DNA of 64,000 nucleotides from a virus (IMGVR_UViG_3300014204_000112:1-64000), one strand, 5' to 3'. Positions 1-40,255 are shown, counted from the first letter of the stretch. Numbers and translations are program-made. Notes: a model not told the origin generated them from the sequence alone.

Positions 1-3000
1 GTTCCAGATGAGCCTGATGTACCAGAATTTCCAGACGAACCTGATGTTCCTGAGCTACCGCTTGTTCCTGAAGAACCTGATGTTCCAGAAGAACCAGAGG
101 AACCGCTCGAGCCAGATGATCCACTTGTTCCTGAACTTCCTGATGTACCACTCGATCCGGATGATCCGCTTGATCCTGAAGAACCAGAAGATCCTGATGT
201 TCCAGATGAACCTGAAGTTCCAGATGATCCACTTGAACCGGAAGAACCCGAAGTACCGCTTGATCCACTTGTTCCGGAAGATCCAGATGAACCTGATTTG
301 CCTGATGATCCGCTTGATCCTGAAGAACCTGATGATCCGCTTGTTCCGGAAGATCCTGAAGTACCAGATGAACCGGATGTTCCTGATGAACCTGATGAAC
401 CTGAAGAACCGCTTGTTCCTGAGCTGCCGGATGTTCCAGAAGATCCAGATGATCCGCTTGTTCCGCTCGACCCAGATGTTCCGGACGATCCACTTGAACC
501 TGACGAACCGGATGTTCCCGAAGAACCTGAGGTACCTGAACTTCCAGAAGTTCCAGAAGATCCCGATGATCCACTTGTTCCACTTGAACCTGACGTACCT
601 GATGAGCCAGACGTTCCGCTTGATCCCGATTTTCCACTTGAACCAGATGAACCGCTAGAGCCTGATGTGCCTGAAGATCCTGAGGTACCTGAACTTCCTG
701 AAGAACCTGATGTACCACTAGAGCCTGATGTTCCAGAACTTCCACTTGTTCCGCTAGAACCTGACGAACCACTTGTTCCTGAACTGCCGGACGTTCCGGA
801 TGATCCTGATGTTCCAGATGAACCTGATTTTCCACTTGAACCAGATGAACCTGAGCTACCTGAACTTCCGCTTGTTCCGCTTGAACCTGAGGTGCCTGAA
901 TTTCCAGATGAGCCTGATGTTCCACTCGAACCACTTGTTCCAGAAGAGCCAGAGCTTCCTGATGATCCACTTGAACCTGAGGTGCCTGAAGAGCCGGAGG
1001 TACCAGAACTTCCGCTAGTTCCGCTAGAACCAGAAGAGCCTGATGAGCCAGAGGTACCGCTCGAACCGGAAGTACCGCTTGAACCACTTGTACCAGAACT
1101 TCCGCTAGTTCCGCTTGACCCTGAGGTACCTGAGTTTCCTGAAGAACCTGACGTACCGGATGAACCTGATGTTCCTGATGATCCGGATTTTCCAGAAGAA
1201 CCACTCGAACCTGAACTACCTGAGGAGCCAGAAGTTCCGCTTGAACCAGAAGAACCAGATGAACCACTTGTTCCTGAACTTCCAGATGTTCCAGAAGAGC
1301 CTGACGTGCCTGAGGAACCGGATGAGCCTGATGAACCACTTGTTCCTGAGCTTCCTGATGTTCCACTAGACCCACTTGATCCTGATGTACCTGAAGAACC
1401 AGAAGTTCCGCTTGAACCGGATGTGCCTGAGTTACCAGAAGAACCTGAAGTTCCGCTTGAACCGGAAGTTCCAGATGAACCTGATTTACCAGAAGATCCA
1501 CTAGATCCAGAAGAGCCAGATGATCCACTTGATCCTGAAGTACCGCTTGATCCGCTTGTTCCTGAAGAACCAGAAGTCCCTGAATTTCCAGATGATCCGC
1601 TCGTTCCTGAGCTTCCTGATGTACCTGATGTGCCCGATGATCCACTAGTTCCTGACGAACCTGAAGTTCCACTCGACCCACTAGAGCCAGATGTTCCAGA
1701 AGAACCTGATGTGCCGGAGGAGCCGCTTGTTCCTGATGAGCCTGAGGTTCCTGAATTACCAGAAGAACCGGAAGTACCTGATGATCCGCTAGTTCCAGAA
1801 GAACCAGATGTACCGGACGATCCTGATTTACCAGAAGAACCAGAAGAACCTGACGAACCGCTGGATCCTGAAGTTCCAGATGATCCGCTAGTTCCAGATG
1901 AGCCAGAAGTTCCGCTAGAACCACTTGAACCAGATGTTCCGCTTGATCCACTTGAACCGGAAGTTCCAGATGATCCACTAGTTCCTGACGAACCTGAAGT
2001 TCCGCTCGACCCACTAGAGCCCGAAGTTCCACTTGACCCGCTAGTTCCTGAGCTTCCTGATGTACCGCTTGAACCTGAGGAACCGGAAGTTCCTGAGTTA
2101 CCTGAAGAGCCTGATGTACCGGACGACCCACTCGAGCCTGAAGAACCGGAAAAACCTGATGTGCCGCTTGATCCTGATTTTCCAGAAGAGCCTGACGTTC
2201 CAGAGGATCCGCTTGAACCACTAGAACCAGAAGTACCGCTTGAACCGCTAGTACCAGATGAGCCTGACGTACCGCTCGAACCGGAAGATCCGGAAGTTCC
2301 AGATGATCCACTAGTTCCTGAGCTTCCTGATGTACCAGATGATCCACTTGATCCTGAAGTTCCCGAAGAACCGGATTTACCAGAAGATCCACTAGATCCG
2401 GAAGAGCCAGATGAGCCGCTTGAGCCTGAAGAACCTGAAGTTCCAGAAGACCCGCTTGAGCCGGAAGTTCCGGATGACCCACTAGATCCAGAGGTTCCTG
2501 AATTTCCGCTAGAACCTGATGTGCCAGATGATCCGCTTGTTCCACTTGATCCTGAAGTTCCCGAAGAACCGGATTTACCAGAAGATCCACTAGATCCGGA
2601 AGAGCCAGATGAGCCGCTTGAGCCTGAAGAACCTGAAGTTCCAGAAGAACCAGATGTGCCGGACGATCCGCTTGTGCCGGACGAACCTGATGTACCAGAT
2701 GATCCGCTTGAACCTGAAGTTCCAGATGAACCACTTGAGCCGGAAGAACCGGAAGTTCCTGAGCTTCCAGATGTACCACTTGAGCTAGAAGTTCCCGATG
2801 ACCCACTAGAGCCCGATGTTCCGCTTGAGCCGCTTGTGCCGGAAGAACCTGATGTACCTGACGAACCACTAGAACCTGATGTTCCAGAATTTCCAGATGA
2901 TCCAGAAGTACCACTTGAACCTGAAGAGCCTGAAGTTCCGGAAGAACCGCTTGTTCCGCTTGAGCCAGACGATCCTGATGTTCCGCTTGAGCCAGACGTT

Positions 3001-6000
3001 CCTGAACTGCCACTTGTTCCACTAGAACCAGAAGTTCCTGAATTTCCAGAAGAACCAGAAGTACCTGAGCTTCCAGACGTTCCACTCGAACCGGATTTAC
3101 CGGATGACCCGCTTGAACCAGAACTTCCTGATGAACCTGAAGATCCAGACGACCCAGATGATCCCGATGTACCTGACGAACCACTAGAACCTGATGTTCC
3201 GGAAGAACCGGAAGTACCACTTGATCCTGACGTACCTGACGACCCTGAACTACCAGAGGTTCCGGATGATCCGCTTGTTCCACTTGATCCTGATGTACCA
3301 GATGAACCACTTGTTCCGCTTGAACCAGATGTTCCAGATGATCCACTTGAACCTGAAGTACCACTTGATCCTGAGCTTCCACTTGTTCCAGAAGAACCAG
3401 AAGTTCCGGAGGAACCTGAGGTACCTGAACTTCCAGAAGTACCACTTGAACCTGAAGAACCTGAGCTGCCAGAAGTACCAGATGAACCACTTGTTCCAGA
3501 AGAACCTGATGTGCCTGAGCTTCCAGAAGATCCAGATGAACCTGACGTTCCACTCGATCCACTTGTTCCAGAGCTTCCTGACGTACCAGAAGAACCAGAA
3601 GTTCCACTTGACCCGGACGAGCCAGATTTTCCGTTTGAACCACTTGAACCCGATGATCCACTTGATCCTGACGAGCCTGAGCTTCCGCTTGTTCCAGAAG
3701 AACCAGAAGTACCGCTTGACCCAGATTTGCCAGATGATCCACTGGATCCACTTGAACCTGAAGTTCCACTTGAACCTGAGCTTCCAGATGTACCGCTTGA
3801 TCCACTTGTTCCAGAAGATCCAGAAGTTCCGCTTGAACCAGATGAACCTGAAGAACCTGAGGTTCCAGATGATCCACTTGTTCCTGAAGAGCCAGAAGTA
3901 CCTGATGATCCACTTGTTCCGCTTGAACCAGATGAACCTGAAATACCAGATGATCCACTTGTTCCAGAGCTTCCTGACGTACCAGAAGAACCAGAAGTTC
4001 CACTTGACCCGCTTGAGCCTGAGCTACCTGAAGTTCCACTTGACCCTGAAGTTCCTGAGCTTCCAGATGTACCAGATGACCCACTTGATCCTGAACTTCC
4101 AGATGTGCCAGACGAACCTGATGTACCACTCGATCCACTAGTTCCAGATGAGCCAGATGTTCCACTTGACCCAGACGATCCTGATGTACCGCTCGAGCCT
4201 GAGCTTCCGCTTGTTCCAGAAGATCCTGACGTTCCTGACGATCCTGATGTACCAGAAGAACCAGAAGTTCCTGAAGAACCACTAGTTCCACTCGAGCCAG
4301 AAGTTCCAGAAGACCCACTTGATCCTGATGAACCTGATGTACCAGATGATCCGCTTGTTCCTGAGCTACCTGATGTACCACTAGAACCTGACGTTCCAGA
4401 ACTTCCACTTGATCCACTAGTACCTGAAGAACCTGATGATCCTGATTTTCCACTTGAACCGGAAGAACCGCTTGAGCCTGAAGATCCTGATGAACCTGAT
4501 GAACCTGACGAACCGGAAGTTCCAGAACTTCCACTCGTTCCGCTTGATCCACTAGAACCACTTGTTCCTGAAGATCCTGACGTGCCAGATGATCCACTAG
4601 AACCAGAACTACCAGAAGTTCCTGACGATCCTGAAGTTCCTGATGATCCACTTGACCCAGAAGAGCCAGATGTTCCCGAGGACCCGCTTGTTCCAGATGA
4701 ACCTGAAGTTCCAGATGAACCACTTGAACCAGAACTACCAGAAGAGCCCGAAGACCCGCTTGTTCCTGAAGACCCTGATGACCCGCTGGTTCCAGATGAA
4801 CCTGACGTTCCGCTTGAACCGCTTGTACCTGAAGAACCGGAAGTTCCAGATGAACCACTTAAACCAGAACTACCTGATGTACCCGAAGAACCTGAGGTAC
4901 CACTTGAACCAGACGTTCCTGATGATCCACTCGATCCAGATGAACCTGAAGTTCCAGATGATCCGCTTGATCCACTAGTTCCTGAGCTTCCAGATGTACC
5001 AGAAGAACCACTCGAACCTGATTTTCCAGATGAACCACTAGAGCCTGAACTTCCAGAAGAACCAGAAGAACCGCTTGAACCGGAAGAACCAGATGTTCCG
5101 CTTGAACCTGACGAACCTGAGCTACCAGAAGTACCTGAACTTCCACTTGTTCCACTCGATCCTGAGCTACCAGAAGATCCACTTGTTCCACTCGATCCTG
5201 ACGTTCCTGCCGAACCGCTTGTTCCACTCGAACCAGATGATCCTGAACTACCAGAAGAACCGCTTGTTCCGCTTGATCCAGATGAACCACTAGAACCTGA
5301 AGTACCACTCGACCCGCTTGTTCCAGAGCTTCCAGAAGAACCACTTGAACCACTCGAACCTGAGGTTCCGCTTGAACCAGATGAACCGGAAGTACCAGAT
5401 GATCCACTTGTTCCAGAGCTTCCACTTGACCCAGAAGATCCACTAGACCCACTTGATCCTGAGCTACCAGATGAGCCTGAGGTACCGCTAGATCCACTTG
5501 AACCGGAAGATCCAGATGTACCTGAACTACCACTTGTTCCAGAGCTTCCAGAAGTTCCAGATGAACCAGATGATCCGCTTGAACCTGACGTTCCTGAACT
5601 ACCTGAAGAACCAGATGTTCCAGATGAACCACTAGAACCACTTGTACCACTACTGCCAGACGAACCTGATGTACCGCTAGATCCTGAAGTTCCTGATGAT
5701 CCAGATGTACCAGAGGAACCACTTGAGCCTGAAGATCCTGATGTACCAGATGAACCTGAGGTTCCACTTGATCCACTAGAACCTGATGTGCCGCTAGAGC
5801 CAGATGTTCCAGAAGAACCGCTAGTTCCGCTTGAACCAGACGTTCCTGAACTACCCGAAGTTCCACCTGAACCTGATGAGCCAGAAGAACCTGAGGTACC
5901 AGATGATCCACTTGTTCCAGAAGAACCTGACGTTCCTGAGCTACCAGATGAACCTGAGGTTCCACTTGATCCAGAACTACCAGAGGAACCACTTGAGCCA

Positions 6001-9000
6001 CTTGTACCACTACTACCAGATGAGCCTGATGTACCACTAGACCCTGACGTTCCCGATGAACCGGAAGTGCCTGAACTACCAGAATTACCAGAAGAGCCAC
6101 TTGAACCACTTGATCCTGAAGATCCAGAGATTCCACTTGACCCACTTGTTCCAGAGCTTCCAGATGTACCTGAAGAGCCAGAAGAACCAGATGATCCACT
6201 AATGCCGCTTGATCCTGAAGATCCAGATGTGCCGGACAAACCTGAACTACCAGATGTTCCAGATGAACCACTTGAACCTGAGGTACCTGAGCTTCCAGAG
6301 GATCCGCTTGTTCCACTAGAACCAGATGATCCTGATTTTCCAGAAGAACCACTCGATCCAGAAGATCCAGAGCTGCCAGAAGAACCTGAAGACCCGGAGC
6401 TTCCGGAGGTTCCGCTTGATCCGCTAGAACCAGAAGAACCACTTGATCCACTTGTACCGCTACTACCAGAAGAGCCTGACGTACCGCTTGAACCGGAGGT
6501 ACCTGAACTACCTGAAGTTCCACTCGAACCTGATGTACCACTCGATCCTGAAGATCCAGATGACCCGCTTGTTCCGCTTGAACCTGACGTACCTGAACTT
6601 CCACTTGTTCCTGATGAACCTGGGCTGCCAGATGATCCACTTGAGCCACTCGTACCACTACTACCAGAAGAACCTGATGTACCGCTAGATCCTGAAGTTC
6701 CAGATGAACCTGATGTGCCTGACGAACCAGAAGAACCGCTTGATCCACTTGAACCTGAACTACCGCTTATTCCTGAAGATCCAGAAGTACCTGAACTTCC
6801 AGACGATCCACTTGAACCTGATGTTCCTGACGAGCCAGAAGTTCCACTTGACCCTGACGTACCACTTGATCCTGAACTTCCGCTTGATCCAGACGTACCG
6901 GAAGAACCTGAGGTTCCGCTTGAACCAGACGTGCCGGAACTTCCAGAAGAACCACTTGATCCAGAAGTACCTGAACTTCCAGAAGTTCCTGATGAACCGG
7001 AAGAACCTGATTTACCTGAGGATCCACTAGATCCACTTGAACCTGAGCTTCCTGAAGAACCACTTGATCCAGATGATCCACTTGTTCCACTAGATCCTGA
7101 AGTACCGGATGAACCAGAAGTTCCACTTGATCCAGAAGATCCTGAGCTACCAGAGGTTCCTGATGAACCACTTGAACCAGACGATCCACTTGATCCAGAT
7201 GTTCCAGAACTTCCTGATGTTCCACTAGATCCTGAACTGCCTGAAGAACCGGACGTTCCACTAGATCCTGAAGAACCAGAAGAGCCAGATGAACCGCTAG
7301 TTCCAGAAGAACCTGAAGTTCCAGAGCTTCCAGATGAACCACTTGAACCTGATGTACCTGAACTACCAGATGTACCCGAAGAACCTGAGGTTCCACTAGA
7401 TCCTGAAGAACCAGATGATCCGCTTGTTCCTGAAGAACCACTTGAACCAGAACTACCTGAGGTCCCTGATGAACCGGAAGTACCGCTTGAACCTGACGTT
7501 CCGGATGACCCACTAGATCCGCTAGAACCAGATGTACCGCTTGATCCTGAGGTACCTGAGCTTCCAGAAGATCCAGATGAACCTGAACTACCTGATGTAC
7601 CACTTGAGCCTGATGTTCCAGAAGAACCCGATGTACCTGAACTGCCAGACGTTCCAGAAGAACCTGAGCTACCAGATGTACCGCTCGAACCTGAAGTTCC
7701 TGAGCTTCCACTAGTACCGCTAGATCCTGAAGAACCTGAACTTCCTGAAGAACCATTTGATCCACTCGTTCCTGAAGAACCAGATGTTCCTGAGGATCCG
7801 CTTGTACCTGAAGAACCTGACGTACCGCTTGATCCACTCGAGCCAGATGAACCGCTAGAACCAGATGTTCCAGATGAACCACTAGATCCTGAAGTACCTG
7901 AAGAACCAGAAGTTCCACTTGACCCGCTTGACCCTGAGTTTCCAGAAGAGCCAGAGGTTCCTGAACTTCCAGACGTACCAGATGAGCCGCTTGAGCCAGA
8001 ATTACCTGAACTACCAGAGGTTCCGCTCGATCCACTTGTTCCTGAAGAACCAGAAGAACCTGAGTTTCCAGATGAACCCGATGTTCCACTTGAACCACTT
8101 GAGCCACTATTTCCTGAGGAGCCTGATGTACCACTTGACCCACTAGTTCCAGATGAACCTGAAGTGCCAGATGATCCCGAAGTACCACTTGAACCGCTTG
8201 ATCCTGACGATCCCGAATTTCCGCTTGAACCTGAGGTTCCGGAAGAACCTGACGTACCAGAACTTCCTGAGGACCCTGAATTACCGGAAGAACCGGATGT
8301 TCCTGAGGATCCACTAGAACCGCTTGAGCCAGAATTTCCTGACGAACCAGAAGTTCCACTAGAGCCAGAAGAACCGGAATTACCTGACGAGCCTGAAGTT
8401 CCACTTGAGCCACTTGAACCAGAAGTTCCAGAGTTACCAGAAGAACCTGAGGAGCCGGATGATCCAGAGTTTCCTGAACTTCCAGAAGTTCCACTTGAAC
8501 CGGACGATCCTGAATTACCAGAAGAACCTGATGTTCCTGACGAACCACTTGACCCGCTTGAGCCAGAATTGCCGCTCGATCCTGAAGTTCCAGAAGAACC
8601 CGATGTTCCGCTAGAACCAGACGAACCGCTTGTGCCTGAGGAACCCGAATTTCCGGAAGACCCTGATGTTCCCGAAGAACCAGAAGAGCCGGAGTTTCCT
8701 GACGAACCACTTGAACCGGAAGATCCCGAGTTTCCTGAGGAGCCGGAGGTTCCTGAAGACCCACTTGATCCTGAAGTTCCCGAGGTTCCAGATTTTCCAG
8801 ATGAGCCTGACGTACCGGAAGAACCGGAGGAGCCAGATGAACCCGAATTTCCAGAACTACCGGAGGTTCCACTTGATCCAGATGACCCAGATGTTCCAGA
8901 ATTGCCGGACGAACCTGAGGTTCCGGAAGAACCTGAATTGCCTGAAGAACCGCTTGTTCCTGAGGAACCAGACGTTCCGCTTGAACCACTTGAACCTGAA

Positions 9001-9330
9001 GTTCCAGAGTTACCAGAAGAACCTGATGTTCCACTTGAACCGCTATTTCCTGAGGATCCTGATGTGCCGCTTGATCCTGAGGTTCCTGAACTTCCACTTG
9101 AACCAGATGAACCTGAAGTTCCTGAACTTCCACTTGACCCACTTGAGCCAGAATTGCCTGCCGAACCTGAAGTTCCGCTAGAACCACTTGATCCAGAATT
9201 GCCTGAACTACCGCTAGTTCCTGAAGAACCACTGGATCCAGAATTGCCAGACGAACCTGACGTACCACTTGAACCGGAGTTTCCTGAGCTTCCGCTTGTT
9301 CCTGAGCTTCCTGACGAACCAGACGTTCCG
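1..9330. repeat. Degenerate 9-bp tandem repeat (~1035 units) encoding Gly-X-Ser
   Basis: On the + strand CC recurs every 9 nt (Gly codons on the minus strand). Longer near-exact duplications exist, e.g. 2343-2450 = 2541-2648. Confidence 0.97.
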
Positions 9331-9452
9331 CCTCCAGCAGTATCACTCCAAAAGACGTTACCATCGTCATCGATCACTAGGACCTTGATCTTGGTTGCAT
9401 CTTTCTGTACGTGGCTGAGATCGACTTGCTTAATCTGTAACTTATTTGACAT
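1..9452 (-). CDS. Giant Gly-X-Ser (GTS/GSS/GNS) repeat protein, >3150 aa, 3' end outside window; probable virion fibre/appendage
   Basis: ATG at 9452 reads MSNKLQIKQVDLSHVQKDATKIKVLVIDDDGNVFWSDTAGGGTSGSSGSSGTSG. No stop is seen down to position 1, which is why the ORF track omits it. It is co-oriented with its neighbours and has an ATAAATA late promoter 28 nt upstream. Confidence 0.92.
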   Translation of the reverse strand, partial: MSNKLQIKQVDLSHVQKDATKIKVLVIDDDGNVFWSDTAGGGTSGSSGSSGTSGSSGNSGSSGTSGSSGNSGSSGSSGTSGSSGNSGSSGSSGTSGSAGNSGSSGSSGSSGTSGSSGSSGSSGTSGSSGTSGSSGNSGSSGTSGSSGNSGTSGSSGSSGTSGSSGTSGSSGNSGSSGTSGSSGNSGTSGSSGSSGTSGSSGNSGSSGSSGSSGTSGSSGKSGTSGTSGSSGSSGTSGSSGNSGSSGSSGSSGNSGSSGSSGTSGSSGNSGSSGTSGSSGSSGTSGSSGTSGSSGNSGSSGSSGSSGTSGSSGNSGSSGSSGTSGSSGNSGSSGSSGSSGNSGTSGSSGSSGTSGSSGNSGSSGSSGTSGSSGNSGSSGSSGSSGTSGSSGNSGSSGSSGTSGSSGTSGSSGNSGSSGSSGSSGTSGSSGTSGSSGTSGSSGTSGSSGNSGSSGSSGTSGSSGNSGSSGSSGTSGSSGTSGSSGNSGSSGSSGTSGSSGTSGSSGNSGSSGSSGTSGSSGTSGSSGSSGTSGSSGSSGSSGSSGTSGSSGTSGSSGTSGSSGTSGSNGSSGSSGSSGSSGTSGSSGTSGSSGTSGSSGSSGTSGSSGTSGSSGTSGSSGTSGSSGSSGSSGSSGTSGSSGTSGSSGSSGSSGTSGSSGTSGSSGTSGSSGSSGSSGTSGSSGSSGSSGTSGSSGTSGSSGTSGSSGSSGSSGTSGSSGTSGSSGSSGSSGSSGTSGSSGSSGSSGTSGSSGTSGSSGSSGSSGSSGTSGSSGSSGSSGTSGSSGTSGSSGTSGSSGSSGSSGSSGSSGSSGSSGKSGSSGSSGTSGSSGTSGSSGSSGSSGTSGSSGTSGSSGTSGSSGSSGSSGTSGSSGTSGSSGTSGSSGSSGSSGTSGSSGISGSSGSSGSSGSSGSSGTSGSSGTSGSSGTSGSSGSSGTSGSSGSSGSPGSSGTSGSSGTSGSSGTSGSSGSSGSSGTSGSSGTSGSSGTSGSSGTSGSSGSSGTSGSSGSSGSSGSSGTSGSSGSSGSSGSSGSSGSSGSSGKSGSSGSSGTSGSSGSSGTSGSSGSSGTSGSSGLSGTSGSSGSSGISGSSGSSGSSGTSGSSGTSGSSGISGSSGSSGSSGSSGNSGSSGTSGSSGTSGSSGTSGSSGSSGTSGSSGSSGSSGSSGTSGSSGSSGTSGSSGTSGSSGTSGSSGSSGSGGTSGSSGTSGSSGTSGSSGTSGSSGTSGSSGSSGTSGSSGTSGSSGSSGSSGTSGSSGTSGSSGTSGSSGSSGTSGSSGSSGTSGSSGSSGTSGSSGSSGSSGTSGSSGTSGSSGTSGSSGSSGSSGTSGSSGSSGSSGSSGSSGSSGSSGTSGSSGTSGSSGSSGTSGSSGSSGSSGSSGTSGSSGTSGSSGSSGSSGTSGSSGSSGSSGSSGTSGSAGTSGSSGTSGSSGSSGSSGTSGSSGTSGSSGSSGSSGTSGSSGSSGSSGSSGSSGSSGSSGKSGSSGSSGTSGSSGTSGSSGSSGTSGSSGSSGSSGTSGSSGTSGSSGTSGSSGLSGSSGTSGSSGTSGSSGTSGSSGTSGSSGSSGTSGSSGSSGSSGSSGSSGTSGSSGTSGSSGTSGSSGSSGSSGTSGSSGTSGSSGSSGSSGTSGSSGTSGSSGSSGTSGSSGTSGSSGSSGSSGSSGSSGSSGSSGKSGSSGSSGTSGSSGSSGTSGSSGTSGSSGTSGSSGTSGSSGSSGSSGTSGSSGTSGSSGTSGSSGTSGSSGTSGSSGTSGSSGSSGTSGSSGSSGTSGSSGTSGSSGTSGSSGTSGSSGSSGSSGTSGSSGTSGSSGTSGSSGSSGSSGTSGSSGTSGSSGTSGSSGISGSSGSSGTSGSSGTSGSSGTSGSSGTSGSSGSSGSSGTSGSSGTSGSSGTSGSSGSSGTSGSSGSSGSSGKSGSSGTSGSSGTSGSSGSSGSSGSSGSSGSNGKSGSSGSSGTSGSSGTSGSSGTSGSSGTSGSSGSSGSSGTSGSSGTSGSSGTSGSSGSSGSSGTSGSSGTSGSSGTSGSSGTSGSSGSSGTSGSSGSSGTSGSSGTSGSSGTSGSSGTSGSSGTSGSSGSSGTSGSSGTSGSSGTSGSSGSSGTSGSSGSSGSSGSSGSSGSSGSSGKSGSSGTSGSSGTSGSSGNSGTSGSSGTSGSSGTSGSSGTSGSSGSSGTSGSSGTSGSSGSSGTSGSSGNSGTSGSSGSSGTSGSSGTSGSSGTSGSSGSSGTSSSSGTSGSSGTSGSSGSSGSSGTSGSSGSSGTSGSSGTSGSSGTSGSSGTSGSSGSSGSSGSSGSSGSSGKSGSSGTSGSSGTSGSSGTSGSSGNSGTSGSSGSSGTSGSSGSSGTSGSSGSSGSSGSSGSSGSSGKSGSSGTSGSSGSSGTSGSSGTSGSSGTSGSSGSSGTSGSSGTSGSSGTSGSSGSSGSSGTSGSSGKSGSSGTSGFSGSSGSSGSSGTSGSSGNSGTSGSSGSSGTSGSSGTSGSSGTSGSSGSSGTSGSSGTSGSSGTSGSSGSSGTSGSSGSSGTSGSSGTSGSSGTSGSSGSSGSSGSSGKSGSSGTSGSSGTSGSSGTSGSSGNSGTSGSSGTSGSSGTSGSSGTSGSSGSSGTSGSSGTSGSSGTSGTSGSSGTSGSSGNSGTSGSSGTSGSSGTSGSSGSSGSSGSSGSSGKSGSSGTSGSSGTSGSSGNSGTSGSSGTSGSSGTSGSSGSSGTSGSSGTSGSSGSSGSSGTSGSSGTSGSSGTSGSSGSSGSSGTSGSSGSSGSSGSSGKSGSSGTSGSSGTSGSSGNSGTSGSSGTSGSSGTSGSSGTSGSSGTSGSSGSSGSSGTSGSSGTSGSSGTSGSSGSSGSSGSSGTSGSSGTSGSSGNSGTSGSSGTSGSSGSSGSSGSSGKSGSSGTSGSSGTSGSSGTSGSSGSSGTSGSSGTSGSSGTSGSSGSSGTSGSSGTSGSSGSSGSSGKSGSSGTSGSSGTSGSSGTSGSSGSSGTSGSSGTSGSSGTSGSSGSSGSSGTSGSSGTSGSSGSSGTSGSSGTSGSSGSSGSSGTSGSSGTSGSSGTSGSSGSSGSSGSSGKSGSSGSSGTSGSSGTSGSSGSSGSSGTSGSSGTSGSSGSSGSSGSSGSSGTSGSSGTSGSSGSSGSSGSSGTSGSSGTSGSSGTSGSSGNSGTSGSSG

Positions 9453-9479
9453 TTAGACCTAACTTCATTTTGCTAAAGT

Positions 9480-9486
9480 TATTTAT
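9480..9486 (-). promoter_or_regulatory. T4-like late promoter (ATAAATA)
   Basis: GATAAATAAC on the minus strand upstream of the ATG at 9452; the same motif precedes many structural genes. Confidence 0.7.
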
Positions 9487-9511
9487 CAGCCCAAATCAAA
9501 TAAACTAGTTA

Positions 9512-10564
9512 CTAGCGATTTTGCTTTGCGTATAAAATGGCTTCTACGTATTTTGCCGAGGCGGAATCCGCTTTTATTTTTGAGAAATCGGCATCGAACG
9601 GATTCTGGTTGATGAATTCTCCCTTGTAGAATAGGGTTCCGTTCTCGTTATTTGTGACACCAGCATTGTGCATGATGTTATGGTTCTCGTACTCAGCCAA
9701 GGTAGACGTTCCCCAACTGAAAGAAAATTCTTTCGATATTCTAGGCTGTGCACCGAGTTTCATTGCATTCCACAGGACTGCCCACAGGTCAGCACACCAT
9801 TTCTGGATAGGATTGTAATCCGTTAATCTCTTATCGATTTCTGCCATTTTAGCATTGACCCACTCCTCAGTTAGTGGAACTGGGCTATTTGCTACTTCTG
9901 CGGACAGAGTCTGTTTAGCTTCAGATATTTCTTGAATACGTTTGGCTCTTTCGGCTGTTTCTCTTTCTGCCATGAATCGATAGAGGGTCAGAGCATCTTG
10001 TTTAACGCTCTTCCAGTAGTCTGCAGTTACTCCCTTCATTAGGTGCTGAGCTCCGCCTGAATTGTTTTGGTTGAACTTCACCAATTCAGGATCAATGTTT
10101 GCAATCTTGCACATTTCCAAGAATAGATCCTCTCCTTTTGAACGAATGTAATCAGAACCTATGTACGAAATAGTATCGCTGAAGTACCAGAAAAGGTCTC
10201 CGTGCATGGAATCAAAATTCGGAAGTTGCCGAAAAATGATGTCTGAATCGTGGTAGAAGATGGTCTCTCCCCTGAGATTTGGGAATTTGACAAAATGTTG
10301 TTCGAGAATGTCCGGCCTCAGTATTGGGATGTACCCGAAATTATCCTTCACCGATTTTGTATAAGAAAAGAATCGAACGTAAGGGTACTTGTTTGCTAAT
10401 GCTGTAAGTTCTGGAGAAGGAGAACCATTATGAGCCCACAGTACTTCTATCCAATTAGGATTTATTCCAACCTTTATGAAATTGTGAATCATTACTTCCA
10501 CTTGCCAATGAAAATATGGGACGTCTGGCTGAGCAGATATGAAAACTACCTTTTTTGTCAACAT
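9512..10564 (-). CDS. GT-A glycosyltransferase resembling peptidyl-serine O-galactosyltransferase / hydroxyproline O-arabinosyltransferase (SERGT1/HPAT-like)
   Basis: N-terminal PYFHWQVEVMIHNF, DxD motif (FYHDSDIIFR), GGAQHL, and C-terminal KWCADLWAVLWNA resemble the recalled YFDWQ / DADMI / WISEMY motifs of that family. Confidence 0.7.
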   Translation of the reverse strand: MLTKKVVFISAQPDVPYFHWQVEVMIHNFIKVGINPNWIEVLWAHNGSPSPELTALANKYPYVRFFSYTKSVKDNFGYIPILRPDILEQHFVKFPNLRGETIFYHDSDIIFRQLPNFDSMHGDLFWYFSDTISYIGSDYIRSKGEDLFLEMCKIANIDPELVKFNQNNSGGAQHLMKGVTADYWKSVKQDALTLYRFMAERETAERAKRIQEISEAKQTLSAEVANSPVPLTEEWVNAKMAEIDKRLTDYNPIQKWCADLWAVLWNAMKLGAQPRISKEFSFSWGTSTLAEYENHNIMHNAGVTNNENGTLFYKGEFINQNPFDADFSKIKADSASAKYVEAILYAKQNR

Positions 10565-10610
10565 CAAACAAAAGGTTTTATTAGCTTATACTTGGACTCA
10601 CCTTCTTGTT

Positions 10611-12644
10611 TTATGGAATGGTGGTCGTAGTAGTAGTTGGAATCACTCCCAACGGTATGGTCACAGTATCGATCAGAACGTTATCTTTGGTGAACGTGTA
10701 TGTTCCAGCGATAGTTGGTATCAATTGGTAGCCAGCATAGTTCAAGTTGAACGTCCATGGCAAGGTCTTGAGAGTATTGATAGGATCTGCAATGTTCGAT
10801 AACGTGTAAGTCACGCTGTAAAGAGCATCCGTGAACGTAACTTCGTACGGTCCACTAGGAGCAGGATTTGCTGTGAACGTTACCGATTTGCTGGTCAATA
10901 TCGTGAAGTCTATCTGGTTGGCAATCGTCGTGGTCGTAGTAGTTGGAGCAGAAGTGGTGGTCGTAGTAGTTGGAGCAGAAGTGGTGGTCGTGGTAGTTGG
11001 GGCAGTAGTTGTAGTCGTTGTCGGAGCTATCGTAGTTGTCGTTGTAGTAGTTGTAGTTATTCCAGACGTGGTGGTCGTAGTTGTAGGAATTGCTGAGATT
11101 GGGACGTCTATTTCGTACTCGCACGATGTGTTGTACGTGAACGTGTAAACTCCGATCACGGTAGGAACTTCTGCAAAATGAACGTCTGATAGATCGAACG
11201 TCCAAGGTAATGAAATCGAGAATCCGAGCAACCCAGTTAAATCGTGATTGCCGCCTAATTGATCTACAAAGGTTACGGTATGTGGTCCCACTGGAGTTCC
11301 CGTAAATGTGATCGTGTTAGGATTATTGCCATAAGGTAAAGTGAAGTTAATTGCATTTGGCGGACAGTAACCTGGAGCAGTAGTAGTTGTAGTCGTCGGA
11401 GGTTGAGTGGTTACTGGAACTCCCTTTATCAAGTAAAATGGGCTGAATGCTGTTACTTGTGCATAAATCGATCTGGTTGCATAATCTGGAGCGTACAGTC
11501 CACCTAGAATGGTCTCATCCACTAAGACTGATCCTACTTGGTGGAATATTCTTACCAAATCGAAATCTGGTTCGGTCATCGATTGTGGAAGTGTGAATTT
11601 CACTATAGCTCCAGCATCATAGACAGTATTCACATCGTGAATTGAATAAGTCAGAACGCTATTTTCCAAGTAATACCCAGAAGGAAGTGTGTACCCTCCG
11701 CTGGTAGTTGGAGTAGGCAAAGAACAAATGGTAATAGGTCCAGCAGCAGCAGTCGTTCCAATTATTTCTATTCCGAATTGTGGGAATATTATTGGCACAG
11801 TATCTGCTATTTCCGTGATGCAAGAGTATCCTGCTTGCGAGCAGTACGGATCCACCGTGAAGTAATGCAATGTAACCGTATCGTAATTCTCTAAGGTCCA
11901 TCCAGCAATCGTTGGATTGAAGTACAGAACATCGGACGAGTCTATCGATCTGAGAGTAGAGGCAGTAGTTCCTCCGTCCTTGCTGAAATAAGCTGGCAAA
12001 GTTTTAACAGCATCTCCTACTCTGATCTGAAGACCATTGATGAATAGTAACATGTTGCTTGATGCTAACGGAGCCGGAACCAAGAATAAGCCAGCAGAAA
12101 TAGGAGATCCATCAATTGAAACAGCATCGGCAACGGCTGACATTATTACTTCCTGCATGCATGGAGTTGCCCCGTAACCTGCTCCGGCCAATAAAGTCCA
12201 ACCTGTGCTCGTCAACCAAACGTAAACTCCCTCCACCCTATTTCCTTGGGCTTCGATGTAGACCAATTCCCCTGGAATTCCGGTCGTAGGCAAAAGCCCA
12301 TAAACTCTCAATCTTAACCTTAACGTATCAGTAACATCGTCCGCTATGAAATTAGCAGCGGTCACTGATCCGCTTGGATGCAGGTGTATCGTTGTAGGAT
12401 AACGTCCGTCTTGTAATTGAGCACCGTACACTCTCAGTCCATTCCTAACCGTCACCCAATTCGCATCGATATTGCTGATGTCCACAGTGACTTCAGACGT
12501 TCCCTGTTCGTAATTTATGGACGTCAAGAATTCCTTTATCGCAGAAGTCAGAGTTTGAAAATTAAAATTTGACAGCTCTACTATCGAACTAGTGCTCGTA
12601 TTGCTTAAGGTTTTAACTGATGTGAGCTTTACTTCAACCGACAT
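10611..12644 (-). CDS. Virion-associated protein with poly-Thr (mucin-like) linkers and a duplicated C-terminal beta domain
   Basis: 677-aa ORF with PTTTTT tracts and two copies of a GP..VTF.D..LPWTF.L..PT..G.YTFT domain. Confidence 0.65.
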   Translation of the reverse strand: MSVEVKLTSVKTLSNTSTSSIVELSNFNFQTLTSAIKEFLTSINYEQGTSEVTVDISNIDANWVTVRNGLRVYGAQLQDGRYPTTIHLHPSGSVTAANFIADDVTDTLRLRLRVYGLLPTTGIPGELVYIEAQGNRVEGVYVWLTSTGWTLLAGAGYGATPCMQEVIMSAVADAVSIDGSPISAGLFLVPAPLASSNMLLFINGLQIRVGDAVKTLPAYFSKDGGTTASTLRSIDSSDVLYFNPTIAGWTLENYDTVTLHYFTVDPYCSQAGYSCITEIADTVPIIFPQFGIEIIGTTAAAGPITICSLPTPTTSGGYTLPSGYYLENSVLTYSIHDVNTVYDAGAIVKFTLPQSMTEPDFDLVRIFHQVGSVLVDETILGGLYAPDYATRSIYAQVTAFSPFYLIKGVPVTTQPPTTTTTTAPGYCPPNAINFTLPYGNNPNTITFTGTPVGPHTVTFVDQLGGNHDLTGLLGFSISLPWTFDLSDVHFAEVPTVIGVYTFTYNTSCEYEIDVPISAIPTTTTTTSGITTTTTTTTTIAPTTTTTTAPTTTTTTSAPTTTTTTSAPTTTTTTIANQIDFTILTSKSVTFTANPAPSGPYEVTFTDALYSVTYTLSNIADPINTLKTLPWTFNLNYAGYQLIPTIAGTYTFTKDNVLIDTVTIPLGVIPTTTTTTIP
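10925..11090. repeat. Thr-rich coding repeats (27-bp unit PTTTTTTSA)
   Basis: gtggtcgtagtagttggagcagaagtg repeated in tandem. Confidence 0.85.
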
Positions 12645-12653
12645 GCTGAGCCG

Positions 12654-14003: not shown

Positions 14004-14011
14004 AGTTAGGT

Positions 14012-14018
14012 TATTTAT
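14012..14018 (-). promoter_or_regulatory. Late promoter (ATAAATA)
   Basis: GAATAAATAAC in the intergenic gap upstream of 14003. Confidence 0.65.
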
Positions 14019-14025
14019 TCAAGGT

Positions 14026-16101
14026 TTAACGGTTTATCGCAATGAATGGAGTATTTAATCTTGGCCTACAATTATCAATGATGGCAAGAGTGGATTCATC
14101 CCTAACAAACAATTGGCTTATCACGAACTCGTGATCTTCTGTTTGAATCATCGTATTGAACAGCCTGACGTTCGCAAGCCAGTAATTCGCTCCGCATATC
14201 GCGAAATTAGCAGTAGTTTCGAAATCGAATTTTCCTATGTTCTGAGTTCCAGTATTAAGAACTGGTTCTATCCCATTGAAGTTCTTCACGTTAGCTGGAT
14301 CCTGAGAGAAAGAGTAAACGTTGACTTCTAACTGTCCATACTGAGCGGAAACAGGAACGGTCAGGGCATACCATTTTCCATATTCGATCGTACCTACCAC
14401 AAACGTGTACGTTGTAGAATTTATCTGTACGTATATCGTTAGGGTAGGCGAGGCAGAATCCACAATAGAGCCGGAGATGATAAGACCTTTCTGCTGAGTA
14501 TCATCATATCCTCTGAACAGAGTCACGACCTGTGTGCCCTTAATGAAATTCACAAGGGAACAGTACGTCATGTTCGGAGTTTCGCTTGTCGATGCAACCT
14601 TCTTGTAAACGATAGCATTGTCAGATTGCATGAAACTAACAGTTCCAGAATCTTCAAGAATGTCAACTCTTTCGGCAGTTTTGAATCCGAGAGTTTTGTA
14701 ACCTTCAATGACGACGTATTTTCCTAGAGCAGAGTACGAATCCTTAGGACCATTCGTTTTTATCCTAGGTTTCGAAGTTTCTCCTATTTTGAAATTGTAG
14801 TCTCCGGTTTCTAAAGAATTGGCAAGCCAAGCAGCAAACAAATCGCTATCTTCGTATCCCCATAATTCCTTTGGTGAAGTACCAGTAAGAATCTGGTCAG
14901 TAGTACGACCAAATGAAGAAAGTGAGTAAACAGTTTGAGTCGGTTTTACTGGGCTCATATCATAATAGTACTCAATGAGTTTGGAGTAATTGAAAGTGAT
15001 GTCCTGAATTTTATTTTTCAATTCTGGGTGTAAAGCCCTACGAGTCTCATCGAACCTGTCAGAAATGGTAGTGAACTGTTGCTTGTCCAATGCATCCAAA
15101 GCCTGCGAAGCAGCTTCGTTTCCGAATAACTGGTCGGACGACATGATGAGGTTATCTAGGAACTGCCTATCTTCTGGTTTCATGAACGTATCGATGTTCG
15201 GATGGAACTTGGTGAGCTGAATTTTCCAGTACATAGGTTCCATCATGAACCCCCTGTACAAGTATGATCCTTGGATTTCGTACATCCTATTCAATAAAGG
15301 AAAGTAGAGGTAGTCTTTCTTTCTTGGTTGGGTGTTTCTTCCAAACATCTGTTGAAAGTAAACATTATCTACGTGAACTTCGAATGGTATTTCGAAATCC
15401 ACTCCAAATTCTTCGAATCTCGGCTTGTTATCTGGGAACTTATTTTCCGGAACCACTACTTTGATACACTTACGATTAGTGGTTTTGAAGAGGGTCCATT
15501 CTTTGAAGATGAAATCTCCACCATCCCTATCCGGTTCGGTCTTGAAGTACACTACTTCGTGGCCGAATATCTTGTTAGTCTGTAAGCTAAGTTCATGCGC
15601 GATCCCAACTGCTGTGCCTGCATCGTACGGTTTGAATAGAGCGTCCTTCTCAGCAGTTATCATTGGACATTTTTCATCGGAACACTGAACTGGAGGACTG
15701 TAATCCTGCCCTTCGCTCTGTTTAGTTTCGACTCCGATCTTTATCCATTCGATCTTTAGTGATTCGGCTAATTGATCGTATGATTCATCATCGTATTCAT
15801 ACTTGACTTCGAAGAAAATATCAGATTCTTCGAATTCTAGGAGTTCGAGTTCGGTCAGGTTAGTCGGCGTAAATGTGTACCATAAGGACCAATTAGCCCT
15901 ATCTGTTGAGTATCTAAGTTTGCGAGTGATGTTAGGTTCCAAAGCACTGTCAAGATCGAGCTCTTCCTTATACCCATTCGGTTTCGTTAAGCGTACTGCT
16001 TTACGAACGGGTTCGCCAGTCGTGAAAATTCTGTAATTCTTGCTGTACCCGATCGAATTTTTTGCCGGGTCTGGAACAATCTTGTATGTTACTTTCTGCA
16101 T
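14026..16101 (-). CDS. Neck/head-completion protein (T4 gp14-like domain) with extra domains
   Basis: GHEVVYF...FGVDF...PRKKDYLYFPLLNRMYEI resembles the gp14 P.EGDLIYFP...LFEI motif. Confidence 0.6.
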   Translation of the reverse strand: MQKVTYKIVPDPAKNSIGYSKNYRIFTTGEPVRKAVRLTKPNGYKEELDLDSALEPNITRKLRYSTDRANWSLWYTFTPTNLTELELLEFEESDIFFEVKYEYDDESYDQLAESLKIEWIKIGVETKQSEGQDYSPPVQCSDEKCPMITAEKDALFKPYDAGTAVGIAHELSLQTNKIFGHEVVYFKTEPDRDGGDFIFKEWTLFKTTNRKCIKVVVPENKFPDNKPRFEEFGVDFEIPFEVHVDNVYFQQMFGRNTQPRKKDYLYFPLLNRMYEIQGSYLYRGFMMEPMYWKIQLTKFHPNIDTFMKPEDRQFLDNLIMSSDQLFGNEAASQALDALDKQQFTTISDRFDETRRALHPELKNKIQDITFNYSKLIEYYYDMSPVKPTQTVYSLSSFGRTTDQILTGTSPKELWGYEDSDLFAAWLANSLETGDYNFKIGETSKPRIKTNGPKDSYSALGKYVVIEGYKTLGFKTAERVDILEDSGTVSFMQSDNAIVYKKVASTSETPNMTYCSLVNFIKGTQVVTLFRGYDDTQQKGLIISGSIVDSASPTLTIYVQINSTTYTFVVGTIEYGKWYALTVPVSAQYGQLEVNVYSFSQDPANVKNFNGIEPVLNTGTQNIGKFDFETTANFAICGANYWLANVRLFNTMIQTEDHEFVISQLFVRDESTLAIIDNCRPRLNTPFIAINR

Positions 16102-16118
16102 TGAACCTATCTTTTTGT

Positions 16119-16125
16119 TATTTAT
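16119..16125 (-). promoter_or_regulatory. Late promoter (ATAAATA)
   Basis: CGATAAATAAC upstream of the ATG at 16101. Confidence 0.7.
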
Positions 16126-16158
16126 CGTAGGTCAATCAGAAATGGGGACTCTAATGCA

Positions 16159-16638
16159 TTATATGATTTCCCTGCAGCTTACGCGATCAATTTCGAACCA
16201 AATAGTTGGGCCTGAGAACTTGTCAGTATTCAGGTAGAACACTATTCCATTAAACGGAAGAGAATTTCCGACAACTGTTTCAATTACATTTACCGCATTT
16301 GTTGGACTAGCTGAATATTCAGCTGCAACAAATCCTCCGCCTGGATTAACCAGAGAAGTTCCGTTCAATCGATACAGGAATAGCGAAGCATTTGATCTGT
16401 ACCAGAATTCAACTTGATAATTGTTTCTAGCTTCGACTATAGCGAAATCATTACTAACTACGCCAATGTCTCCAGTTTTGCTGGCTTGCCTGGTGATTTT
16501 TTGAACCCTATCCCGAAAGCCAACTACTATTGGAGAGTAAATGGAGTACGAGGCGAATTGCCCTGGAATAAGCCGCCATTCATCGCCCAATCCGCTTGGA
16601 GAAAGTTTATCAACCCAGTCTTCTGTTAATATTGCCAT
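16159..16638 (-). CDS. Hypothetical beta-rich protein, possibly carbohydrate-binding
   Basis: 159-aa ORF within the operon; YQVEFWYR and FEIDRVSCRE are CBM-like strands. Confidence 0.55.
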   Translation of the reverse strand: MAILTEDWVDKLSPSGLGDEWRLIPGQFASYSIYSPIVVGFRDRVQKITRQASKTGDIGVVSNDFAIVEARNNYQVEFWYRSNASLFLYRLNGTSLVNPGGGFVAAEYSASPTNAVNVIETVVGNSLPFNGIVFYLNTDKFSGPTIWFEIDRVSCREII

Positions 16639-16653
16639 TTGTGTTCGTTAATT

Positions 16654-19098
16654 TTAGAAGTAATCGCTATCGCCATTAGAAACGAGTTCAGTACCAAATC
16701 CTGAAGGAGCGGTCGTAGTCGTTGTAGTTGGCGAACCGGTAGTCGTAGTGGTTGTAGTTGGCGAACCGGTAGTCGTAGTGGTTGTAGGTCCAGTAGTGGT
16801 TGTTGTAGTAGGCTGTGTGGTAGTGGTTGTAGTAACTCCCTGTGGGTGAACATCCTGTGCCGTTTGGTGAGCAGTAATGTATGAACCGGAAATAGTTACT
16901 TCAATAACATTTCCATCAGAATTAGTAGGGTGTACGTAATTCAAAAAATCATAAATTGATACATTGCTTTCCAGTGCACAAGTTAATCCATCAGCAATAT
17001 TCTGACGATTTCCATGAAGCTGTAACTGAGGAAGGCTAGAGCCGGTGCCATCATAGTATCCAAATTTTGCATAAATCGAAGATTGGTCGATTGGCTGCCA
17101 ATCTACTGAAGATGATCCACCATTCCATGAATAACCCATTGCAAACGGTCTCAACAGATAACCAGTGGTCATCGTTGGAGATGGAGTGGTTAAAGAAACT
17201 CCAAACTTCATTTTTTCTGAAACGTTTACGTTTGGCCAGTGATCTGGTATTCCCCTAACTATTACTTGGTAAGCTTCGCTTCCTATTGGATGTTGCATTG
17301 CTGACCAAGCAGTATCTGCAATATCTCCAACTGAAACCGACAGAGCTGCATACGGATTAGAATAGTATGGCGGCGATACTCTACCAGTAGTGGTAGAAAC
17401 GGTCCAGTTCGATATTAAGAATTTTACTGTGAAGTTCACAACATTTCCGATCTTAGTCATTATTCCACTTTGACCAGAAATAGTTGGGTTAACATTGGTC
17501 AACCCAGTCGCAACAGTTGGCAGAGTTCCAAAATAAACAGTAGGAGTAAATGTCACTTCTTGATATTCATCCAACGTGTTAGAATCACTACTATTCTTAG
17601 TAGGAACTGTTCCAGTTGAAACTGGGAATGGAATTGCACTGTTTAGCCTGGAATCTTTTACCTTTAGGGCATAATTCGTGCTGCTAGAACCTATGATAAC
17701 TTCCTTCGTAATATCACTAGCATAAAGGCCTAGATCTGAATCTGATTCAGCGGTCAAACCCAATGAATTGAATGTTATTCCAAGAACTTCATTCTGGACA
17801 GTCACGTTCAATTTATCGAATAGAACCCTAGTTATGGAATTGCCGGTGTCTGACTTAATAATGAGGCTGTCGTTCCAACGGTTTAGATCGAATCCCATGG
17901 CTATCTTGTGAGATACCGAAAGAGAATCTGTGCTTTTCAGATGAAGTCCATCAAGTCCGATTCCGGTTAAGGCAACGTCAGGATTAGAAGTTACTGATTC
18001 AAGGTTCTTATTGCTGAACCCGAATTGAAGTATTGAGTTATTTCCTTGCTGATCTAAATTCTTTTTGTTTATTGACCATGTGAATTTAGAGTTTAATGCA
18101 GGTCGAGTGGTGCTGTCATTCGAATGAAGGTTGAAATCTGCCAAAATTGCACTCTGTCCAGGAAGTTCAGTAGCTGTCAACCTGTACTTACGTACTCGTA
18201 AATTCTGATATGTTGGGCTTATAACATAAGTCGCTCCAGAATCAGCAGAATTAAGGTATTCTCGTATGTCATCGACTGACCCTAATTCCAATTGATGCCT
18301 ATAACCAGTAGAATCAATAAATTGATCTGCTTCAATAGCTGCACTGGATGCATTGAAAAATGAGTAAAGTGAAAGAATCGATGAGTATGGGAATGCTGTA
18401 TTGAGATTCGAAATGTTCGTTCCCAACCTATCTACTGCAATTTCAATGTTGTACCCATTCAGGCCAGGAGAACCAACTGCTTTTACCGTCTTTACTGTGT
18501 ATGGGTCAAAATTAAACATGACTCCCTGAGCATTCTGCGAACCGTCAGTTGTCAATCTCCAGTTAGGGGGATACGACAAGTAATAATCGGCAGGCTTAGA
18601 AGCGAAACCGATTGTATTTCGATCGAGCCCTTGTGAATTCTTTACTAAAACTGCAATACGAGCAGGCGGAGCTTGTGAAATTATACCAGTAGCCCAAGGC
18701 TGTTGATCAAGATTTATGCTTCTAATGAGAGCATCGAAGTCGGTCACAAGTTCCCAAACAGTACCGTCAGTTGTTTTTGTGTAAATTCCATTGTATGTAG
18801 TTGCACCAACTGTCACTTCTCCAACATAATAGTCCCCGATTACTGAATCGGCAGGAGAGGAAGCAGAAAGATCTAATTGAATTCCGCTCGGAACTGACCA
18901 CATTACTGATCCATTCTTACCAGTCAATCCAATCGGACCTATTGGTCCAGGTCCACCGGCTTCGCCAGTATCACCCTTGTCTCCAGTTTGACCAACTCCG
19001 AGAGCAATCAGTTGATTGAAGTTGAAATTTAGCTTGCTCGCTAAATCCGATTGACTATCAATCGCGAATATCTCTTTAAGATTGATGTTGACCGCCAT
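16654..19098 (-). CDS. Tail fibre-like protein with short collagen segment and poly-Thr tail
   Basis: GQTGDKGDTGEAGGPGPIGPIGLTGKNG collagen stretch, FTPT...TKIGNVV fibre motif, and C-terminal TTTTTTGSP repeats. Confidence 0.7.
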   Translation of the reverse strand: MAVNINLKEIFAIDSQSDLASKLNFNFNQLIALGVGQTGDKGDTGEAGGPGPIGPIGLTGKNGSVMWSVPSGIQLDLSASSPADSVIGDYYVGEVTVGATTYNGIYTKTTDGTVWELVTDFDALIRSINLDQQPWATGIISQAPPARIAVLVKNSQGLDRNTIGFASKPADYYLSYPPNWRLTTDGSQNAQGVMFNFDPYTVKTVKAVGSPGLNGYNIEIAVDRLGTNISNLNTAFPYSSILSLYSFFNASSAAIEADQFIDSTGYRHQLELGSVDDIREYLNSADSGATYVISPTYQNLRVRKYRLTATELPGQSAILADFNLHSNDSTTRPALNSKFTWSINKKNLDQQGNNSILQFGFSNKNLESVTSNPDVALTGIGLDGLHLKSTDSLSVSHKIAMGFDLNRWNDSLIIKSDTGNSITRVLFDKLNVTVQNEVLGITFNSLGLTAESDSDLGLYASDITKEVIIGSSSTNYALKVKDSRLNSAIPFPVSTGTVPTKNSSDSNTLDEYQEVTFTPTVYFGTLPTVATGLTNVNPTISGQSGIMTKIGNVVNFTVKFLISNWTVSTTTGRVSPPYYSNPYAALSVSVGDIADTAWSAMQHPIGSEAYQVIVRGIPDHWPNVNVSEKMKFGVSLTTPSPTMTTGYLLRPFAMGYSWNGGSSSVDWQPIDQSSIYAKFGYYDGTGSSLPQLQLHGNRQNIADGLTCALESNVSIYDFLNYVHPTNSDGNVIEVTISGSYITAHQTAQDVHPQGVTTTTTTQPTTTTTTGPTTTTTTGSPTTTTTTTGSPTTTTTTAPSGFGTELVSNGDSDYF

Positions 19099-38261: not shown

Positions 38262-40255
<1,994 letters not shown>

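Follow-up and report, generated by a model that had tools for sequence, protein, structure and literature searches.

A widespread family of predicted phage glycosyltransferases linked to poly-threonine tracts on virion proteins

The stretch of DNA analysed here, referred to throughout as the window, comprises the first 64,000 nucleotides (nt) of the IMG/VR viral record IMGVR_UViG_3300014204_000112 (positions 1-64000, window base 1 being contig base 1). The full record is linear, measures 213,922 bp and is estimated to be 83% complete. Its minus strand carries the genes from ~1 to ~37 kb, and within this block lies the gene of P0001, a protein of 351 amino acids (aa) that is confidently predicted to be a GT-A glycosyltransferase and that belongs to an uncharacterised, very widespread phage family, phrog_4417. 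The neighbouring genes encode P0003, a protein with poly-threonine (poly-Thr) linkers, and P0002, a collagen-like giant, while a fibre with a poly-Thr tail, P0004, is encoded ~6 kb upstream of the enzyme block. An earlier note on this DNA had singled out the enzyme, the giant, the poly-Thr protein and the fibre, and we recovered all four at the positions it gave, on the minus strand. The features are as follows.

9512..10567, minus strand: P0001, predicted 351-aa soluble GT-A glycosyltransferase of family phrog_4417 (phrog_4417 profile, AlphaFold model and fold matches).
10241..10249, minus strand: codons of the DxD motif of P0001, D107-S108-D109; neither aspartate varies among 52 homologues, and across 150 representatives both reach at least 90% conservation.
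10611..12644, minus strand: P0003, 677 aa, an N-terminal domain followed by small beta domains joined by poly-Thr linkers (translation).
10926..11084, minus strand: main poly-Thr linker of P0003, residues 521-573, with six T6-T9 runs spaced by SGI, IAP, AP or SAP.
11379..11396, minus strand: T6 run of P0003, residues 417-422.
10620..10637, minus strand: C-terminal T6 run of P0003, residues 670-675.
16654..19098, minus strand: P0004, 814-aa fibre, collagen-like motif at the N-terminus and poly-Thr tail at the C-terminus (translation; weak tail-fibre PHROG matches at residues 33-68).
16711..16833, minus strand: poly-Thr tail of P0004, residues 756-796, with five T6-T7 runs.
3..9452, minus strand: P0002, collagen-like (Gly-X-Ser)n giant of more than 3150 aa, C-terminus missing (translation).

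The P0001 gene has a TTG start codon at 10567 and an ATG at 10564, and its translation contains the motifs YFHWQ (residues 18-22), DSD (residues 107-109) and WCADLW (residues 257-262). In an alignment of 52 diverse homologues with a mean column identity of 30%, the residues W257, H300, G303 and K315 are invariant together with the two aspartates of the DxD motif, and W21 and W262 are nearly so. As candidate ligands, D107, D109, H300, G303 and K315 match the metal- and diphosphate-binding residues expected of retaining GT-A enzymes. Residues 9-347 of P0001 align with positions 3-291 of the 293 positions of the phrog_4417 profile (E value 1.9e-65), a PHROGs family listed without an annotated function. 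Among the candidates scored, the family comprises 1427 clusters at 90% identity and 833 representatives at 50% identity (E 0.001), and its carriers are phages of Enterococcus, Lactobacillus, Staphylococcus, Lactococcus, Clostridium and Chryseobacterium, along with uncultured jumbo phages. A Pfam scan of P0001 gave no match, GT8 included. A sequence-profile search of the PDB returned noise only (an epimerase at E 0.022; TAL-effector repeats), and these hits were discarded.

The AlphaFold model of P0001, computed with 21 homologues in the input, achieved a predicted local distance difference test (pLDDT) score of 92.9. The fold is GT-A, and the best solved matches are retaining GT8/GT24-type enzymes: glycogenin, with a Z score of 15.1 over 226 aligned aa and a root-mean-square deviation (rmsd) of 3.6, followed by Skp1 alpha-galactosyltransferase (14.7), UGGT (14.5), LgtC (14.4) and GlyE (13.9), with WbbM and TarP as further fold relatives. 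The best solved structures align 226-245 residues with P0001. Several of the top matches act on proteins or protein-bound glycans, and the best are specific neither to DNA nor to lipopolysaccharide (LPS) modification. The proposal of the earlier note that the 351-aa protein is a glycosyltransferase is thereby supported. No signal peptide, membrane segment or hydrophobic N-terminal segment was detected in P0001, whose first strand begins at residue 8.

The P0003 gene ends 43 nt upstream of the enzyme gene and the P0002 gene begins 59 nt downstream of it; all three are co-directional, and no terminator-like site was found in either gap. P0003 carries eight T6-T9 runs. Of the ~247 open reading frames (ORFs) in the 214-kb record, the sole ones with such tracts are those of P0003 and P0004, and both lie at most 9 kb from the enzyme gene. 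The arrangement is conserved in the orthologues of P0003 (loci L181-L217), where the enzyme gene is directly downstream in 24 of 24 complete copies. None of these 24 lacks it, and the 14 orthologues with no detected enzyme gene are all cut by their own contig end. Among the complete orthologues, which share the same N-terminal domain, the runs of at least five Thr range from 2 to 31. The structural model of P0003 is poor (pLDDT 57.7, residues 1-161 unmodelled) and its fold matches are weak, to ZU5/GAIN-like domains at Z 9-10 and to phage baseplate or neck domains at Z 5-6. Within this low-confidence model, residues 265-410 (window 11415-11852) form a beta-sandwich resembling the autoproteolytic ZU5, GAIN and FIIND domains (Z 9-10, ~128 aa).

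To place this arrangement in a wider context, we collected 80 viral loci from IMG/VR with a P0001 homologue at 36-80% identity, 78 of which entered the counts of gene position. A tract was defined as at least 75% Ser or Thr in 20 aa, over a greedy gene set. A protein with a Ser/Thr-rich tract lies within 10 kb of the enzyme in 70 of the 80 loci, usually encoded by the next gene upstream on the same strand. Tract-bearing genes are distributed by position as follows.

Genes directly upstream of the enzyme gene: 50 of 78 bear a tract.
Genes directly downstream of the enzyme gene: 1 of 78.
Other genes within 3 kb: 21 of 289.
Genes at least 3 kb away: 11 of 619.

The comparison of upstream with distant genes gives an odds ratio of 99 (Fisher p 4e-45). 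Once the tracts are masked, BLAST sorts the upstream proteins into 21 clusters, 11 of them with tract-bearing members. The linked tracts in the 50 loci consist of 63% Thr, 13% Ser, 6% Pro and 6% Ala, and Thr exceeds Ser in every one of them. The tie between the enzyme family and Ser/Thr-tract virion proteins, which the earlier note had drawn from a single genome, is a tight one in many phages, and the linkage to Ser/Thr repeat genes is strong.

The strongest single argument that tract and enzyme act together comes from phages related to Enterococcus phage phiFL1A. In phiFL1A itself, the major tail protein and the capsid-like gp45 both end in poly-Thr, and the enzyme gene directly follows the tail gene. 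We gathered 27 phiFL1A-like loci by their tail protein. All 12 that carry the enzyme have poly-Thr tails on both the tail and the capsid-like protein, against 0 of the 15 without it (Fisher p 6e-8). Enzyme-bearing and enzyme-free loci are interleaved along the series of tail-protein identity, which implies at least two gains or losses. Similar associations are seen elsewhere: the tail protein of VPE25 has a poly-Thr C-terminal end, Chryseobacterium phage MA9V-3 has an internal tract in the gene upstream of the enzyme, and in small temperate siphophages the enzyme gene is located within the head and tail modules.

Gene fusions join the family to further enzyme domains. Of the 150 best phrog_4417 representatives, 90 are at least 400 aa long; 86 of these were scanned for domains and 19 contain a second recognisable glycosyltransferase domain (GT7C, GT2, GT6, GT25 or Gly_transf_sug). 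Seven proteins of 775-788 aa, typified by P0128, combine an N-terminal methyltransferase+GT2 part with a C-terminal phrog_4417 enzyme. Over 451 aa, the N-terminal part of P0128 shares 39% identity (E 2e-89) with a protein encoded by the genome studied here:

G000:C1:199281-200699, minus strand, outside the window: 473-aa Methyltransf_24+GT2 protein (similarity to the N-terminal part of P0128).

The fusion of their homologues in the P0128-type proteins suggests that P0001 and the methyltransferase+GT2 protein at 199 kb act in one pathway in this phage. The record also holds a sugar/acyl gene cluster outside the window (G000:C1:76635-82137, plus strand), encoding an 856-aa GT1+GT2 protein, a hexapeptide transferase, a FabH-like KAS III and a short-chain dehydrogenase; it adjoins a gpV-like baseplate gene and a DnaJ homologue.

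The earlier note had further assigned P0001 to the plant and algal HPAT and SERGT1 enzymes (GT95 and GT96). This kinship held at the level of predicted structure. The closest predicted model in the ESM Atlas represents a Chlorophyta cluster with PF23452 (HPAT) in 100% of its members, at a template-modelling (TM) score of 0.67 over 287 residues and an rmsd of 4.0, with predicted models on both sides of the comparison. Among the 30 nearest named clusters in a language-model neighbour search, 21 have PF23452 in 10-58% of their members. The other nearest non-viral predicted-structure family is a Bacteroidota fusion with a GT7C domain. At the level of sequence profiles the assignment did not hold. 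PF23452, with a gathering cut-off of 23.9 bits, matches neither P0001 nor anything else in the genome of this phage. It matches 3 of the 52 homologues, all sub-threshold (best E 0.019), and none of 10 short, divergent homologues; in 48 related phage records it gave no match at the enzyme gene or above the cut-off, and a single one elsewhere (E 0.012). A search for longer homologues yielded only phage and bacterial fusions. The PDB matches of P0001 include no plant extensin-glycosylating enzyme, and we know of no solved structure for these enzymes. Our reading is that P0001 and HPAT are probably related at the fold or superfamily level, with membership of GT95 or GT96 undemonstrated by sequence profile.

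The giant P0002 opens with a 40-aa head, conserved in the relatives L005 and L012, and continues as 1037 triplets with Gly in register in 1036; the contig end cuts the frame, and the C-terminus is therefore missing. Of the 1037 triplets, 1030 have Ser immediately before the Gly, Ser and Thr together total 2013, and the protein is 53% Ser, with at most two hydroxy residues in succession. Ser is written with all six of its codons and exact DNA repeats reach at most 108 nt, which makes P0002 a real, codon-diversified frame and not a collapsed perfect repeat. There is one proline in 3150 aa, the X position is occupied by S, T, N or K, and the repeat falls outside the Pro-rich or charged pattern of stabilising X and Y residues. 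In L014, a complete relative of 2449 aa, an N-domain of 85 aa precedes ~2170 aa of Gly-X-Y and a C-domain of 190 aa; L014 matches collagen-like tail-fibre PHROGs, and L012 ends in GPVGPIGPPG triplets. Assembly contigs from three DNA sequencing runs break inside the repeat, and no listed piece reaches beyond the window start. An exact bridge between the start of the giant and the enzyme gene is present in two runs, which could be the samples that the record came from. Uncultured phages often encode collagen-like Gly-[TS]-Ser proteins, of 4338 aa at the longest and mostly in the absence of the enzyme, and in two of them (L123 and L133) Tyr and Phe are among the commonest X-position residues.

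Elsewhere in the block from 1 to ~37 kb are collagen-motif fibres, several very large proteins without a known family, and a protein that may take part in closing the head:

14026..16101, minus strand: neck/head-closure-like protein (phrog_679 head closure Hc2, E 1.4e-7; Pfam T4_neck-protein, E 8.6e-4, below the Pfam cut-off).

This neck/head-closure-like match points to a virion-structure module. A weak Glyco_transf_7C match in the same protein was rejected, since it shows no similarity to the second domain of the fused phrog_4417 homologues. Just past the structural genes lie a homing endonuclease (35493-36128), a late sigma factor (36176-36595) and a GroEL-like chaperonin (38606-40255; phrog_5725, E 2e-148). 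The last ~200 bases at the far end of the contig, outside the window, consist of short tandem units that alternate between AAACTTGACCTTGCCGC and AAACTTGGCCCAGTCT. With the giant Gly-X-Ser gene at one end and these tandem units at the other, both record ends stop in repeats. A search of sequencing runs located near-identical DNA in landfill and groundwater metagenomes, and no RNA run is listed among the runs that match the phage DNA.

On the strength of the fold, the conserved DxD, His and Lys residues, the gene fusions and the association with Thr tracts, we consider it probable that P0001 starts a cytoplasmic O-glycosylation of poly-Thr tags on virion proteins. Several points weigh against this interpretation. 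A GT-A fold is silent on the identity of the acceptor, and our literature search returned no glycan, glycopeptide or enzyme activity reported for any phrog_4417 member. The virion role of P0003 is putative, its model being poor and its fold matches weak. The linkage p-values overstate independence, as the loci are related to one another; in 28 of the 78 loci no flagged tract lies directly upstream, and in 10 of the 80 there is none within 10 kb. Lastly, ~30 of the 45 homologues longer than 615 aa (P0281-P0311 and P0315) are fused to radical-SAM and SPASM domains. Such domains are typical of peptide- or sugar-modifying enzymes, and the fusions could point to sugar chemistry or to another acceptor. 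Radical SAM appears in the genome of this phage as a sub-threshold fragment only.

The principal alternative concerns the giant. The earlier note had taken the neighbouring (Gly-X-Ser)n chain as the main substrate, with up to ~2000 Ser/Thr sites glycosylated per chain in a proteoglycan-like fibre, which would be compatible with glycosylation of poly-Thr as well. The giant gene directly follows the enzyme gene on the same strand, and Gly-X-Ser ORFs likewise lie 63 bp-3.4 kb downstream of the enzyme in its 13 closest relatives (L005-L017, 57-80% identity), the largest being 1640-2900 aa. A collagen helix leaves its X and Y side chains exposed, and glycosylated Thr is known from collagen-like repeats, namely those of Bacillus BclA and Riftia cuticle collagen. 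However, the adjacency is limited to one clade and thus counts as a single event. In a sample of 60 further viral loci that encode Gly-[TS]-Ser proteins (L112-L171, the longest protein having 4338 aa), one has the enzyme within 10 kb. When whole records are considered, three of 43 encode it, including 2 of the 5 with a completeness of at least 90%; in two of the three it lies 16-20 kb from the fibre gene. Most of these records are fragments, which makes the absence of the enzyme soft evidence. The co-occurrence of transferase and GxS-repeat genes, which the earlier note had proposed as a check, is weak. The companion tracts are moreover dominated by Thr and arranged in runs, whereas the giant is rich in Ser and never exceeds two hydroxy residues in succession. 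With a co-occurrence of 1 in 60 and a conserved partner that prefers Thr runs, the giant is a possible but unsupported substrate, and we hold it unlikely that it is the main one; the claim of ~2000 glycosylated sites was not borne out. Should the enzyme also act along the whole (Gly-X-Ser)1037 chain, which we doubt, the product would be a glycosylated collagen-like filament near a micrometre long. This estimate takes ~3100 residues at 0.29 nm each, the established geometry of the collagen triple helix, and assumes that such a helix forms. Such a filament would be a viral collagen/mucin hybrid, made with a relative of the enzymes that glycosylate plant cell-wall proteins.

Two further explanations carry less weight. 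The acceptor might not be a protein at all but a host wall polymer, LPS (in serotype conversion or superinfection exclusion) or the phage DNA, the position of the gene among structural genes being incidental. Many phage glycosyltransferases have roles of this kind according to reviews cited in PMC12619734, and LgtC, WbbM and TarP are among the fold relatives of P0001. This is difficult to square with the perfect tracking of enzyme and poly-Thr tails in the 27 phiFL1A-like loci, with the ~99-fold enrichment of the enzyme gene directly after tract-bearing genes, with its place inside the head and tail modules of small temperate siphophages, or with the lack of a membrane segment in P0001, and we regard a non-protein acceptor as improbable. 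It is more improbable still that the runs of Thr serve as simple flexible linkers, or arose by low-complexity drift, and are co-inherited with the enzyme in a mobile two-gene cassette without any enzyme-substrate relation. The strict synteny of the P0003 clade, where all 24 complete orthologues have the enzyme directly downstream, is what such a cassette would produce. Yet the tracts occur on unrelated proteins (tail tube, capsid-like, fibre and unknown; 11 BLAST clusters), at C-termini and in linkers, and in the phiFL1A-like phages two different proteins gain or lose their tail along with the gene.

For O-glycosylation of poly-Thr tags, the reading that we prefer, we infer a protein acceptor, a cytoplasmic site, a donor sugar, an elongation step and a benefit to the phage in the following terms. 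P0001 would be a soluble, metal-dependent (DxD), retaining GT-A enzyme that, late in infection, uses a host nucleotide-sugar in the host cytoplasm. It would place the first sugar on the hydroxyls of Thr, and of some Ser, in runs of ~6-9 Thr spaced by Pro, Ala or Gly. The linkers of P0003 and the C-terminal tail of the fibre P0004 would be its acceptors in this phage. The sugar may then be extended or methylated by other phage enzymes, the methyltransferase+GT2 protein at 199 kb being a candidate. The products would be short, mucin-like segments, stiff and protease-resistant, on the virion appendages.

If this is correct, a single unannotated enzyme family marks a second and much more widespread route to sugar-coated virions, and Thr runs constitute a simple sequence tag that predicts which proteins become modified. 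Among the carriers are phages of Enterococcus, Staphylococcus, Lactobacillus and Lactococcus that can be cultured; some carrier groups are under study for phage therapy, others infect dairy and food-fermentation bacteria, and the modification would bear on their immune recognition, stability and adsorption. It would also make a soluble relative of the plant extensin-glycosylating enzymes accessible to bacterial genetics. Within the literature searched, no paper links phrog_4417, HPAT-like enzymes or poly-Thr tags with phages, and the family, its tag and its phage range are new in that sense. The fusion link, the preference for Thr over Ser and the negative result for Gly-X-Ser fibres are likewise new here.

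The enzyme resembles known systems in several respects. In the GT8 motif HxxGxxKPW, the HxxG and the Lys stand close together, whereas ~11 residues separate them in P0001. With GT8/GT24 enzymes such as glycogenin, LgtC, UGGT, XXYLT1 and GlyE, P0001 shares its fold (Z 14-15); its DxD motif and its conserved C-terminal His and Lys are candidate counterparts of the metal and diphosphate ligands of such enzymes. Several of these enzymes act on proteins or protein-bound glycans, as is proposed for P0001; GlyE acts on a serine-rich repeat adhesin. It differs from them in sequence, with merely 6-12% identity, and in a long helical insert at residues 182-249. More residues of P0001 align with the HPAT cluster (287) than with any solved structure (at most 245), and the DxD motif is again in common. 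Plant HPAT and SGT1 are type II membrane proteins of the Golgi that attach the first sugar to hydroxyls of repetitive structural proteins (PMC8012813). Unlike these membrane-anchored enzymes, P0001 is predicted to be soluble and presumably cytoplasmic, and its presumed acceptor is the Thr run, where the plant acceptor is hydroxyproline (Hyp) or Ser-Hyp4.

The giant P0002 resembles Bacillus BclA in having Gly at every third residue over a long stalk with hydroxy residues in the repeat, and its relative L014 has the same layout of N-domain, stalk and C-domain. Unlike BclA, P0002 is nearly free of proline and its stalk is 10-50 times longer; it is known here from a sequence whose C-terminus is missing. 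To our knowledge, virion glycosylation is documented only for mycobacteriophages, with an effect on antibody recognition, and this is the nearest described system to the one proposed here. In mycobacteriophages, phage-encoded glycosyltransferases place glycans on the C-termini of capsid and tail-tube subunits (Freeman et al. 2023, as reported in PMC12619734, which cites it). In the gene sequences of the phiFL1A-like phages, putative tags likewise stand at the C-termini of the tail-tube and capsid-like proteins, and the enzyme gene is their neighbour. In contrast to the mycobacteriophage system, their tag is a pure Thr run, and phrog_4417 spans many phage groups.

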